From: Octopus vulgaris | Taxonomy: Eukaryota | Assembly (NCBI GenBank): GCA_951406725.2 | Contig: OX597838.1 | Span: 30,566,001-30,630,000 of the forward strand | Direction: 5' to 3' | DNA length: 64,000 nucleotides | Shown here: positions 14,937 through 63,787 of the stretch, piece after piece | Layout of the letters: the number at the start of each line of letters is the position of its first letter | How positions within the stretch are numbered: position 1 is the first letter of the stretch | Made by a program: the position numbers and the translations under genes | The notes under the pieces: generated by a model | Seen by the model: only the letters and a program-made list of their open reading frames with translations | Database searches by the model: none | What the model was told of the DNA's origin: nothing

Positions 14937-15009
14937 AGGTTCCAGCGAGTTTCGAACTCGCGACCTTCTGCGTGTTAAGCAGATGTGATAACCGCTACAC
15001 CATGGAACC
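14937..15009 (-). tRNA. tRNA-Val(AAC)
   Basis: Full cloverleaf, A and B boxes, C50:G64, U73, T-run terminator. Confidence 0.92.
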
Positions 15010-15315
15010 ACTTGGCTTCTCAGGCAAATATCTTCATTATTAACTGTTTGTACCGAGAAATTTTAGAAGCAGACTTGGATATTTCGCTCGGTTGTTGTTG
15101 ATATTGTTGGAGGTCGTTGTGGTGGGGACCTATCTACCACCCCTCCCTCCCACTCCCACCCCTCCCTCCCACTCCCACCCCTCCCACCCCTCCCCCCCCT
15201 CCCACAATGATAACAACAAAAACTAGAAGAAAACGTCATCAACAACAATGACGACATCGACAAAAGGAATGAGGGTGGTGGAGTGTTTTTTATATATGAA
15301 AATAAGAAGAAAAAG

Positions 15316-15388
15316 AGCTCCACCAAGTTTCGATCCCACGATCCACTGCGTGTCAAGCAGATCTGATAACTGCAACAACAAAGAATGG
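15316..15388 (-). pseudogene. Decayed tRNA-Val copy (anticodon reads GAC)
   Basis: Reverse complement GCTTGACACGCAG; acceptor and D arms degenerate. Confidence 0.6.
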
Positions 15389-15640
15389 CTTATCTTGACG
15401 GAACACCAAGGAACCTTCATAAGGAACTATGTTACCGATTCACGGACAAACACAGGAAGTGAAAGACATCAGAAATACAAAGATAATCTCGGCGGGAGTT
15501 GAACTCAGAGGACAAACATCCAGAACCAATACAACAGTTTATTCTATCCGACGATCGAATGACTACACCAATCATCTGCCTTAAAAAAAAAAAGGAAAAC
15601 AAAAAACATATAAGGTGTAAAAAAAAAAAAAAAAAAACTT

Positions 15641-15713
15641 AGGTTCTAGCGAGTTTCGAACTCACGACCTTCTGCGTGTTAAGCAGATGTGATAACCACT
15701 ACACCATGGAACC
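15641..15713 (-). tRNA. tRNA-Val(AAC), C6:A67 mismatch
   Basis: Full length with one acceptor mismatch. Confidence 0.82.
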
Positions 15714-16084
15714 ACTTGGCTTCAGCGGTTGCAATATATATTTCTATAGAGTTTACTATTGATTTGGGTTTTAAGTGAACGGAATTTAGAAATGGAAGAG
15801 AGACGGAATAATTCTTTCTGATTTTGGCAGAGGACCAACAATTTTTTAAGAGTTTCAACAGTAGAAGGTGTCCGACCGATGAAATGTCTTTTCTAAAGAG
15901 GTGCGACCACAATAAACATAGCGACAATAACAACAACAACAACATTAATAATAATAATAATAATAATAATAATAATAATAATAATAATAATAATAATAAT
16001 AATAGTAATAATAATAATAATAATAATAATAATAATAATAATAATAATAATAATAGTAATAGTAGTAGTAATAATAATAATAAT

Positions 16085-16630
16085 GCAGTACCAGGCAGTG
16101 GCTCTCATGGCTTTGATCTTAACTGATTGTAAGTGTTATCATGTACATTGTTTTGTCTTGGTATAAAAGATGGGCTACAGCAAATATTCTGCTCAATACC
16201 ACAGATTTGCTTGTCAGTTGTTTGACCTTAACCAGTTGAGCATGTCCCTTTGTGGCTGACGATATGTGCATCTCTGATCACGAGCAGAAGTAGTGGGGGA
16301 GCATCATAGCCATGTGTTGAGGGATTCTTTGGGGTTTGAATTGTTCACCTCTGGAAACATGGGTGGTTCTTTCAACATCCTTAAACAACCCTTATTCAGG
16401 GACCGTTTGAGCGGGATGGGCTACTCAACCTGAAGAAAATTCTAACTGGGCCCCACCTGCAAGGTCATGTGCTGTTTATCTTGATATGAGATCACCATGT
16501 CGCGCACATATGGTTGTGATGCATGTGCCTGGTGTACCTTTATCAGACGGGTAGTCATGATGGGTATATTGGGCTTCGTATATTTTACCCCAGTGTCACT
16601 TTGATGGCATGAACTGCTCTCTCACTCAAT
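16085..16630. mobile_element. Unclassified insertion within a (TAA)n microsatellite
   Basis: ~545 bp of higher-GC sequence with TAA repeats on both sides. Confidence 0.45.
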
Positions 16631-16938
16631 AATAATAATAATAATAATAATAATAACAATGGCAGCAACAACAATGAGAATAACAATGTTTACACAATAA
16701 ATATTGGTTTCAAATTTTGCCACAAGGACAGCCATTTTACGGGAGGGGACGAGTCGATTACATCGAACCCAAGTATTTTACTGGTACTTATTTTATCGAG
16801 CCAGAGAAAATCAAAGGCAGAGTCGACCGTAGCGGAATTTGAACTCAGAACGACAAGATGGAAGAATCGCCATTAAACATTTTACCCGGCGTGCTAACGG
16901 CCCTGTCAGGATTTTCGCCGATCTGAAAATAAAATCTA

Positions 16939-16979
16939 TGGTTCCAGCGAATTTCGAACTGGCGACCTTCTGCGTGTTG
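16939..16979 (-). pseudogene. tRNA-Val 3'-half fragment
   Basis: GGTTCCAGCGAATTTCGAACTGGCGACCTTCTGCGTGTT, then unrelated sequence. Confidence 0.65.
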
Positions 16980-60204: not shown

Positions 60205-60277
60205 GGTTCCATGGTGTAGTGGTTATCACATCTGCTTAACACGCAGAAAGTTGTGAGTTCGAAACTCGCTGGAACCT
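60205..60277 (+). tRNA. tRNA-Val(AAC), variable-loop variant
   Basis: Full length, stems intact. Confidence 0.83.
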
Positions 60278-61626
60278 AATTGCTTTACATTTTGCTAGTA
60301 TATAATCATTTCTATTCTAGGCACAAGGCCCGAAATTTTGGTGGAAGGGTCAAGTCAATTAGATCGACTCCAGTATGCAACTGGTACTTAATTTATCGAC
60401 CCCGAAAGGATTAAAGGCAAAGTCGACCTCGGCGGAATTTGAACTCAGAACGTATAGACAGACAAAATATCTATTTCTTTACTACCCACAAGGGGCTAAA
60501 CATAGAGAGGACAAACAAGGACAGACAAACGGGTTAAGTCGATTATATTGACCCCAGTGCGTAACTGGAACTTATTTAATCAACCCCGAAAGGATGAAAG
60601 GCAAAGTCGACCTCGTCGGAACATGAAGTCAGACCGTAGCGGCAGACGAAATACCGCAAAGCATTTCGCCCGGCGTGCTAACAATTCTGCCAGCTCGCCG
60701 CCATATTTTGCTAGTACATAATACCACCACCTACATTACAGTTGGTATTGCAAACGCTGTTGTTGTCGGCGACGTTCGGTTCCAGTTGTTGTTGTTGTTG
60801 TTGTTACTATTGTGTTGTAGGGTGGGCCCTCTCTGCCGTCACCACCGATGTGGACGGACAGACTCAGCGATATATTAAAATTTGACATTGGAAAATTTGT
60901 CAGTAGAGACAATTGGTTTCAAATTTGTGTACAAGGCCAGCAATTTCAGTGGGAGGAGATAAGTCGCTTACATCAACCACAATGCTCAACTGGTATGTAT
61001 TTTATCACACCCGGCGGAATTTGAACTCAGAACGTAAAGACGGACGAAATGCCGTGAAGCTTCTTACCCAGGGTGCTAACGAATCTGCGAAACTGTATAA
61101 CGGTTTCAATACTCTATTGAATATTCTTTTCCCTTCATTGTGATATGAATATTCTTGAGAGATTGAAAAACTTAACAATCTCTGGTTTCTATTTCTCTCT
61201 CTTTTAAAACTCAGAGAGAAACCTTTGTATGAAATGACGATGAAACCAAAAAAAGTAAAGAGAGAGAAACTGTAGTGCTCCGGATTAAAGGTTCTCTAGT
61301 ATTTACATTCCGTTAGATTCCTAGTTGTTGTTTCTGATCAAACAGACATATAATTAAAGTATGTCAGCCATGACCATCTCATCTTATCAAACAATCCACC
61401 CAAGACTTCAGTATCCAGTGGCCACCACTCTTATTTCTCTTCCAATTCATATTTAGTGAGTCTTAAAGTGTTTGATCTTAGATTTACGACCTGGTCACTG
61501 ATATGTGACATGTGATAAGGCGACATCTTCGATCAAAAATGTTGGGCGCGCTGCTGTCGTTTTTGAAGTTGATGCAAATATATCAACGTCTATTCATATA
61601 AAAGAATAACTCAAAAAGTAAACCTT

Positions 61627-61699
61627 AGGTTCCAGCGAGTTTCGAACTCACGACCTTCTGCGTGTTAAGCAGATGTGATAACCACTACACCATGGAACC
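61627..61699 (-). tRNA. tRNA-Val(AAC)
   Basis: Consensus body. Confidence 0.92.
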
Positions 61700-62246
61700 A
61701 GTTGATAATAATTTATCAACTTTTGCTTTATATAAAAAAAAGTTGTGGGTTGTACAGGGTTTAATGGTTATTTACTTTAAGAAAAGGGAGTGGAATCTCA
61801 GAAATGGTAAATTAACAACAAAAATTAGTTATATTTATTTTCAATTCAGGTTTCAAACCCTGGAGGAGTTGACTTTAACCTCCACGTACTCAGGGTATCA
61901 TAAAATATTGGTAAAATATTGGTTCTTTTGGTCAAATGTACATCGAGTTTATCACCTGGGCTCTTTTTAGAAATATCTGTCTGTGTGTCAATGTGAGAGA
62001 TGAAAATTAAAAGACAGTTCAATATTTATTACGATCAATAATTACCAATAGAACAGGTCATTATAGTATTGACCCCTGAGGATACAGAATAGAAAGTGGA
62101 CTGCAGCAAGATTCGAAATGCTAAGCTCTCCTTGTTAATGTAACCATTTTTGATACTCCACTGTGTTTTGAAAGCTAACTCTGCGTTAAAATCTGCACAA
62201 AATACTTGTGTATGACAAAACAATATCTGATAGAAGGACAGCATCT

Positions 62247-62319
62247 GGTTCCATGGTGTAGTGGTTATCACATCTGCTTAACACGCAGAAGGTCGTGAGT
62301 TCGAAACTCGCTGGAACCT
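62247..62319 (+). tRNA. tRNA-Val(AAC)
   Basis: Consensus body. Confidence 0.92.
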
Positions 62320-63083
62320 AATTGTTTTATACATTATTTGCATTTAGTGCCACCACCCTCATTACTGTTGGTGAGGCAAGGGTTGCTTTTTCTCACCGAC
62401 TTGAACTTGGCATACCAATCACGAGCGGTTCTTTCAGCTATGGCATCCTCTCCATACACAGCACAAATGTCGCGAGCAGCTTTTGCAGCCTTAGAACCTT
62501 GATTAAAGGTGTCGAAAATGCTCGTTTCTCTTAACTTGTCATTCCATTTTAATGATCTGGAAATAAACTAAAATTAACTAAAATTAACTAAAATTAACTA
62601 GAAAAAAAAGATTCCAAAATGATTCAAAAATAGAATTCTTGAAAAAAATAAATTCCAAAATTTAATAAAACGGTGGGAAATTAGTTGCCAACTATTTTGA
62701 CTCATTTGAAATATGGGGCGAAATATCAGAAACTTATTCGTGTATATCACTGGAACCTAACACTTTTAAAGTCATAAATTGCAATAGTAAAGCTGGACAT
62801 ATGTCAAATAAGAAATTAGAGGGAAGTATTCAAATGGAGTGAGATAAATGATTTTCCCAAGATGACATTCAATGAAGTCGAAAATGGGATCTCATGATTG
62901 CGAAGCCAACGATATAACTTATAGATTGGCTGAGCGTATAATAAGGGGTGTAAAGATCTAGACCCATCACAGCAATAACTGAGACAAAAGGTCGTGTACT
63001 ACAAGAACAACATCAACATTTCCAGTATCATGGGGTTGAATGCGGTAGAACCTTGTACAAGCAAAGAAAAAGAAAGTATAATT

Positions 63084-63156
63084 AGGTTCCAGTGAGTTTC
63101 GAACTCACGACCTTCTGCGTGTGAAGCAGATGTGATAACCACTACACCATGGAACC
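63084..63156 (-). tRNA. tRNA-Val(CAC)
   Basis: Full length, U50:A64. Confidence 0.92.
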
Positions 63157-63714
63157 AGTCGGTAACGAAACCCAAATGTTTCTTTAACAAATACAAATGG
63201 TAACTTATACACAGTTTACAGTTGATTTACTTATAAAAAGACAGTGGAATATAAGAAATGGTAATTTAAGAAGTATTTAGTTATATTTATTTATAGTGAG
63301 GGTTTCGAATCCTGTTGGCGTTCACTGCACCTTCCATGTATTCAGATTATAAAATATTGGTCACTTCTTTTGGTGAAATGTACATAGAGTACATCCACTG
63401 GGCTCTCTTTAGAAATATCTGTCTGTGTGTCAATGCTAGAGAGAAGATATTGAGAGAAGATCAATATTCATTTTATCAATATTTATTGCAAAGATCAATA
63501 ATTATCAATAGATCAGGTCATTATTGTATAAACCCTCAATGCATAAAATGGAAAGTGAACACAACTAGGATTCGAAACCCTATACAATTTTTGTTAATTC
63601 ACCGTTCCTGATACACCACTGTGCATTGAAAGCTGTGTACAAGATACAACTTAAATTGTGTGCAAGATACAACTTGTGTATGATAAAACAATATTTGAGA
63701 ACGGTGATGCATCC

Positions 63715-63787
63715 GGTTCCATGGTGTAGTGGTTATCACATCTGCTTAACACGCAGAAGGTCGTGAGTTCGAAACTCGCTGGAACCT
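63715..63787 (+). tRNA. tRNA-Val(AAC)
   Basis: Consensus body. Confidence 0.92.

Follow-up and report, generated by a model that had tools for sequence, protein, structure and literature searches.

Reviews of valine transfer RNA (tRNA-Val) give adenine as the base at the discriminator position, base 73 (PMC9976931, PMC7749636; articles and supplements are cited here mostly from excerpts), and the sequences listed for human, mouse and silkworm agree, with A73 in 11 of 12 Val entries and U73 in none (PMC9023262 supplement, in part). The twelfth is a flagged, low-scoring mouse entry ending in G. Here we examine a 64,000-nucleotide stretch of the Octopus vulgaris genome (GenBank assembly GCA_951406725.2, contig OX597838.1, forward-strand positions 30,566,001 to 30,630,000; hereafter the window) that carries a cluster of tRNA-Val genes in which base 73 is predominantly T, that is, U in the RNA. 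The human, mouse and silkworm tRNAs share the octopus cloverleaf and the bases A35, C36, A37 and C38, and in human and mouse the acceptor stem of Val-UAC is identical to the major octopus type. The view of A73 as the textbook state, taken in a preliminary description of this DNA made from the sequence alone, is therefore sound, and the octopus genes are a real, well-measured exception to it, which a model organism shares and for which weak recognition of base 73 is the likely explanation.

The model organism is Caenorhabditis elegans, for which U73 tRNA-Val is already present in public sequences. In the part of the supplement to PMC8192933 consulted, U73 occurs in 7 of 10 distinct Val sequences (AAC 1/4, CAC 2/2, TAC 4/4; one Val-like row labelled Met was dropped from these counts), and a mature 3' fragment of the Val-CAC/TAC group ends in U73-CCA, with 345, 204, 68 and 31 reads at four ages. 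The C. elegans tRNA-Val(CAC) and tRNA-Val(TAC) resemble the octopus genes in having U73 and the same type of D-arm and anticodon-arm, whereas the AAC isoacceptor is mostly A73 (three of four distinct sequences), making the genome a mixed one. Octopus differs in having U73 in all three isoacceptors and in ∼150 genes, mostly in one cluster. No paper remarking on U73 in nematode or mollusc tRNA-Val was found in a literature coverage that lacked most subscription and some older papers, and term look-ups in partial texts of PMC9023262, PMC3923123, PMC2018626, PMC10954443 and PMC6602477 returned no mention of it.

ARAGORN and Rfam, each applied separately, place 59 tRNA-Val genes between positions 14936 and 63787 of the window (Table 1). 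A register-aware scan assigns T73 to 50 of the 59 and A73 to nine, these being the gene at 20421-20493 and array units 49368, 49532, 49701, 49866, 50202, 50371, 50706 and 51546. The count rises to 52 of 61 when two further copies or fragments, decayed but likewise ending in T (31336, together with either 13972 or the 3' fragment at 29201), are included, which reproduces the ∼52 of 61 reported earlier along with the same exceptions. All 59 genes pass both ARAGORN and the Rfam tRNA model (RF00005, 45-68 bits), with a 7-bp acceptor stem and D, anticodon and T arms; base pairing was inspected in five copies, and the cloverleaf confirms the register of the discriminator, G1-A7 pairing with U66-C72 and the following base being unpaired. 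A35 and C36 have a frequency of 1.00 and C38 of 0.98-0.99 in the octopus copies, giving an NAC anticodon throughout. The layout is that of genes transcribed by RNA polymerase III (Pol III): the internal box regions are conserved, with positions 8-19 and 53-61 nearly invariant, CCA is not encoded, and TTTT occurs at most 29 nt after position 73 in 163 of 167 copies.

The predominance of T73 extends across the 2.8-Gb genome, in which the window was located on contig C25. An anticodon-arm pattern wide enough to admit human- and insect-type Val genes gave 148 matches, and the 147 examined comprise 131 with T73, 8 with A73 (all in the window) and 8 that are broken or cut at a locus edge. Patterns for the 3' half returned 160 T and 15 non-T, the latter made up of 9 window A73 copies, 3 C73 copies and 3 apparent chance matches. 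Smaller Val clusters on contigs C19, C23 and C25, which have different acceptor stems, are also T73. Taken together, 180 octopus copies divide into 166 T, 9 A and 5 C; two copies with a 1-nt deletion (true end T) and the misregistered L137 were dropped. The pattern searches found no second Val family of human or insect type genome-wide, and patterns for other anticodon stems matched only two point variants, both inside the window; exact patterns can miss divergent genes, and the absence of another Val family is accordingly a strong indication short of proof. No A73 was found among the intact AAC and CAC genes examined, each of which has U73 apart from five copies with C73. In a 2023 review A73 is described as universal (PMC9976931, in part), yet octopus apparently has no intact A73 gene for the decoding of GUU, GUC and GUG by AAC and CAC tRNAs. 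On the genes compared here, to which the C. elegans Val-CAC and Val-TAC genes add a second failure, A73 is not a defining feature of eukaryotic cytosolic tRNA-Val.

Base 73 in octopus is maintained as part of the gene, as had been claimed earlier for the window, and neither chance nor T-richness of the flank accounts for it. In the 43 non-array window copies T has a frequency of 0.98 at position 73, whereas at positions 74-76 the commonest base reaches only 0.58, 0.65 and 0.30; in 134 copies with distinct flanks the corresponding values are 0.96 against 0.57, 0.43 and 0.34. A tree of 180 copies was made from the upstream sequence together with positions 1-72, leaving out position 73; on it, parsimony requires 9 changes at position 73 (a number inflated by the unresolved array), 33-52 at positions 74-80 and, in the body, a median of 2 and a mean of 2.7. 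Similarly, 58 disjoint paralog pairs differ at position 73 in 3 cases and at positions 74-78 in 12-17, with a mean of 1.1 per body site. Because tRNA flanks are reported to mutate like the gene but to escape selection (PMC13034040, in part), this contrast of body and base 73 with the flank indicates that position 73 is clearly constrained, although somewhat more loosely than the average body site.

Two simple reasons for a T at this position were considered and set aside. As the start of the terminator it fails in nearly all octopus copies, in which the T-run begins several bases later, and it is also contradicted by the base that follows in metagenomic U73 Val genes (47 C, 45 T, 26 A and 23 G among the matches listed). 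Avoidance of pairing between bases -1 and 73 in the precursor is unsupported, A standing at -1 in 30 of 82 distinct U73 genes.

All nine A73 copies in the window have the TAC anticodon, and they likely represent two recent changes, one in the gene at 20421 and one spreading within a damaged tandem array. The first is likely a single recent change, since the duplicate with the same flanks has T73. Within the array, a U7.U66 mismatch in the acceptor stem is seen in unit 49368 and is expected in the 15 A64 array units other than the end unit, and the first unit of the array repeat (51713-51785) is intact with T73. The irregular alternation of A73 and T73 captures a point change in the course of spreading by unequal exchange. 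The five C73 copies lie outside the window (L007:1132, L007:6416, L007:9431, L008:2383 and L003:8057), and four of them are members of a CAC subfamily whose variable loop is altered.

Table 1. tRNA-Val features of the octopus window, in positions of the 64,000-nucleotide stretch.
Feature	Start	End	Strand	Remarks
Main tRNA-Val cluster, left part	14937	63787	both	59 intact genes; AAC, TAC and CAC; 50 T73, 9 A73
tRNA-Val(AAC), representative of commonest type	54328	54400	+	T73 at 54400
tRNA-Val(TAC), representative, full cloverleaf	39534	39606	+	T73 at 39606
tRNA-Val(CAC), representative, full cloverleaf	42506	42578	-	T73 at 42506
A73 tRNA-Val(TAC)	20421	20493	-	no other A73 gene found in the genome has a fully paired acceptor stem
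T73 duplicate of the 20421 gene	24593	24665	-	both flanks shared with the 20421 gene
Tandem array, repeat ∼168 bp	49027	51618	-	16 TAC units, all with C5>T and A7>T; 8 A73 and 8 T73, interleaved
Decayed tRNA-Val copy	31336	31408	+	12 differences from the reference copy; T73 kept
Decayed tRNA-Val copy	13972	14044	+	16 differences; T73 kept; just outside the start coordinate of the preliminary description

Beyond octopus and C. elegans, planarian Val has A73 in 5 of 5 rows with a readable end in the excerpt of the supplement to PMC7962491, a further 6 rows being unreadable or pseudogenes, and with all readable rows A73 the idea of U73 as a pan-spiralian trait is unsupported. A scan of metagenomes (T73 only, at least 6 of 7 acceptor pairs) returned at least 81 distinct U73 Val genes in at least 141 copies and at least 128 loci, some of them, among the matches listed, 3-4 changes from octopus genes, and A73 and U73 Val genes occur together in at least 8 metagenomic loci. 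In viral contigs, in which both states were sought, eukaryote-type tRNA-Val (L172-L186) has T73 in 14 stretches (15 genes, 10 distinct) and A73 in one gene. Eight of the 14 T73 stretches are labelled as giant-virus bins, for which host contamination is possible. The viral-contig genes suggest that the valyl-tRNA synthetases (ValRS) of the hosts accept U73. Judged from these sequences, U73 in tRNA-Val is scattered and recurrent across organisms, being neither an octopus novelty nor general to spiralians. The proposal of a lineage-specific change in the preliminary description is consequently not sustained: what it named as contrary evidence, U73 proving common among invertebrate tRNA-Val genes, has largely come to light, given the 7 of 10 C. 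elegans sequences, the metagenomic genes and 15 of 16 viral genes, and the earlier interpretation as a whole is partly supported.

The octopus genome has at least two ValRS loci, on contigs C1 and C2. The gene on C2 corresponds exon by exon to the 1080-aa Octopus protein P0001 (one exon is 100% identical), and the gene on C1 is a distant paralog of it. We interpret the C1 paralog as the mitochondrial form. The class I catalytic and editing-domain motifs are intact in P0001, which is 69-72% identical to the enzymes of other molluscs and 54-64% to those of arthropods. Among 353 near-invariant columns it has 6 private changes; in 29 animal enzymes this number ranges over 0-44 (median ∼3). Only three columns separate 7 molluscs from arthropods, and two of these states are common to other animals of unestablished Val N73. 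The octopus cytosolic ValRS thus looks ordinary, with nothing to mark a remodelling, in a comparison that is blind to subtle change; the co-evolved ValRS once proposed for this locus leaves no sign in the sequence, although a subtle shift of preference would escape notice. No eukaryotic ValRS structure was matched by two octopus exons, the matches being the Thermus-type 1GAX, 1WK9 and 1WKA only.

According to excerpts of published work, wheat germ ValRS is indifferent to A73 and for yeast ValRS this base matters less than A35 (PMC9976931), and a ValRS-tRNA structure reveals no obvious contact with base 73, G or C there causing a modest drop (PMC7749636). The valine tRNA-like structures (TLS-Val) of viruses are valylated by eukaryotic ValRS via the anticodon, carry A or C as the discriminator and do not conserve that base (PMC7749636). 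They differ from the octopus case in being viral RNA ends rather than tRNA genes, and the alternative base is C rather than U.

We consider it about three-quarters probable that the octopus Val genes are normal tRNAs with U73 in all isoacceptors, charged unrepaired by an ordinary-looking ValRS that reads mainly the anticodon. This reading rests on the full cloverleaf, the Val anticodons, the T-run, the genome-wide T73, the lack of an A73 set for AAC and CAC, and the unremarkable ValRS. Pol III would transcribe the U73 genes, the trailer would be cut after U73, and CCA addition would give U73-CCA. ValRS likely identifies the tRNA mainly by A35, C36 and C38 and, with no evident contact to base 73, would accept A or U there. 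U73 likely reached fixation in an ancestor, was copied as the cluster expanded and is retained under mild purifying selection. As a locus this is ordinary housekeeping, and its value is that of a clean counter-example to the A73 rule; it provides a natural and cheap test of the extent to which eukaryotic ValRS, when charging tRNA or editing threonine, reads position 73, and a warning against calling tRNA-Val genes nonfunctional from N73.

Several points weigh on the other side. In the available parts of the literature, A73 is said to act strongly in the valylation of eukaryal tRNA-Val and to be universal (PMC9976931), and is called crucial for ValRS editing, on one cited study (PMC11295145); the substrate in the wheat germ and yeast tests was a tRNA-like structure from a virus (PMC9976931); the substitutions in turnip yellow mosaic virus (TYMV) RNA were G and C rather than U (PMC7749636); and U73 lowers the kcat of CCA addition ∼3-fold in a human assay (PMC4477674). 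In the literature examined we came across no experiment that put U73 directly to the test with a ValRS from an animal. The study behind the editing claim is reportedly E. coli work. For octopus, we infer transcription, the mature end and charging from genomic sequence. Moreover, T73 is kept in ∼96% of copies, a higher share than an enzyme indifferent to the base would call for, and because U73 also slows CCA addition, something may positively favour U at this position.

Such a preference is the strongest competing explanation, and we regard it as possible but rather unlikely. Here U73 would be actively preferred in octopus and perhaps a wider clade, either because charging or editing by ValRS has been re-tuned or because U73 protects tRNA-Val from the A73-reading IleRS, LeuRS and MetRS, the Val, Ile and Met identities overlapping through A73 and A35 (PMC9976931, in part). 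The best argument for it is that U is conserved despite the cost in CCA addition. It would also account for T73 in all three isoacceptors and in several sequence families on different chromosomes, for a position 73 far more conserved than position 74 onward, for the survival of A73 mainly in stem-damaged array units, and for the T73 of close metagenomic relatives (3-4 differences, among the matches listed). The best counter is the coexistence of A73 and U73 Val genes in C. elegans and in at least 8 metagenomic loci. The metagenome scan, having asked for T73 only, gives no ratio of A to U, and its loci have no taxonomic placement, a limit on the support that it lends to our favoured account of normal, anticodon-read tRNAs. 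Octopus itself retains one intact A73 gene along with five C73 copies, and its ValRS has neither an excess of private changes nor more than the three columns between molluscs and arthropods. In its broadest form, in which valine identity flipped in octopus together with scattered other eukaryotes and their giant viruses and ValRS charging or editing now prefers U73, the idea is similarly doubtful. Were it true, a supposedly universal determinant would be switchable, like the A73/U73 switch of glycine, an octopus ValRS preferring U73 would amount to an identity switch inside animals, and Val and Gln would be left with nearly the same acceptor end.

Animal tRNA-Gln resembles octopus tRNA-Val in having U73, which in octopus is found in 21 of 21 Gln genes examined (of 58 pattern matches), and in the acceptor end the major octopus Gln type departs from the major Val type at a single pair, 6:67, whereas the anticodon, D-arm and T-arm are different. 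Discrimination between Val and Gln would therefore have to sit outside the acceptor end, and the near-identity of the two ends fits an anticodon-led identity. Like the Val genes, the octopus Gln genes (L187-L190, L209-L212) lie in single-isotype clusters.

Editing or repair of U73 to A73 after transcription, as the preliminary description had also envisaged, would reconcile the genes with reviews that treat A73 as conserved. It is very improbable, as mature C. elegans Val-CAC/TAC fragments retain U73 before CCA, gene and fragment agreeing on U, and animal tRNAs for Gln and Thr routinely carry U73, the octopus Gln genes above included; a base that is always replaced would moreover be expected to drift, and T73 is conserved. 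Least probable of all is that the cluster is a nontranslational tRNA family or a repeat resembling a short interspersed element (SINE), decoding being left to other genes: high copy number, decayed copies, a damaged array and some dispersed copies that resemble retrocopies would suit it, but every intact AAC or CAC gene examined has U73 or C73, making such a family very unlikely, no other Val family was found in the searches above, Rfam scores are 45-68 bits, and a conserved body (median of 2 changes against 33-52 in the trailer) with diverging flanks is the signature of active tRNAs under purifying selection (PMC13034040, in part).

One further feature of the acceptor end concerns NSUN6, which forms m5C72 in Cys and Thr tRNAs and whose substrates combine C72, U73 and CCA with particular pairs at 2:71 and 3:70 and with contacts in the D-stem. 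The octopus Val genes have the C72 and U73 of such substrates, but their pairs G2-C71 and U3-A70 differ from the 2:71 and 3:70 pairs that NSUN6 prefers (PMC6409601).

The main Val cluster continues for ∼80 kb past the right end of the window (L001-L009), and with the window part (14937-63787) it forms a cluster of ∼130 kb composed of repeated multi-gene blocks, with well over 100 single-isotype genes in mixed orientation. Elsewhere, 12 of 17 dispersed single tRNA-Val copies (L016, L019-L022, L024-L026, L028-L031; all T73) consist of the gene and its trailer down to the T-run, fused directly to one of three repeats. Several of their trailers match those of cluster genes (L026/L012, L016/L033, L020/L014, L025/L008). 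The copies resemble chimeras retrocopied from pre-tRNA before its processing, and as such suggest transcription of the precursor only.

A DNA record of the mature 3' end, sought as the 3' 18-mer followed by CCA, proved uninformative, with 9 matches, 7 of them with A and none with a tRNA upstream. Flanking sequence identifies eight as related protein-coding repeat fragments and one as an unrelated repeat. The decayed fragments (L035-L040, L042 and L043), which are presumably Helitron or PIF1 helicase-like, hold the tRNA-Val 18-mer and CCA by chance, and they constitute a trap for primer-binding-site searches.

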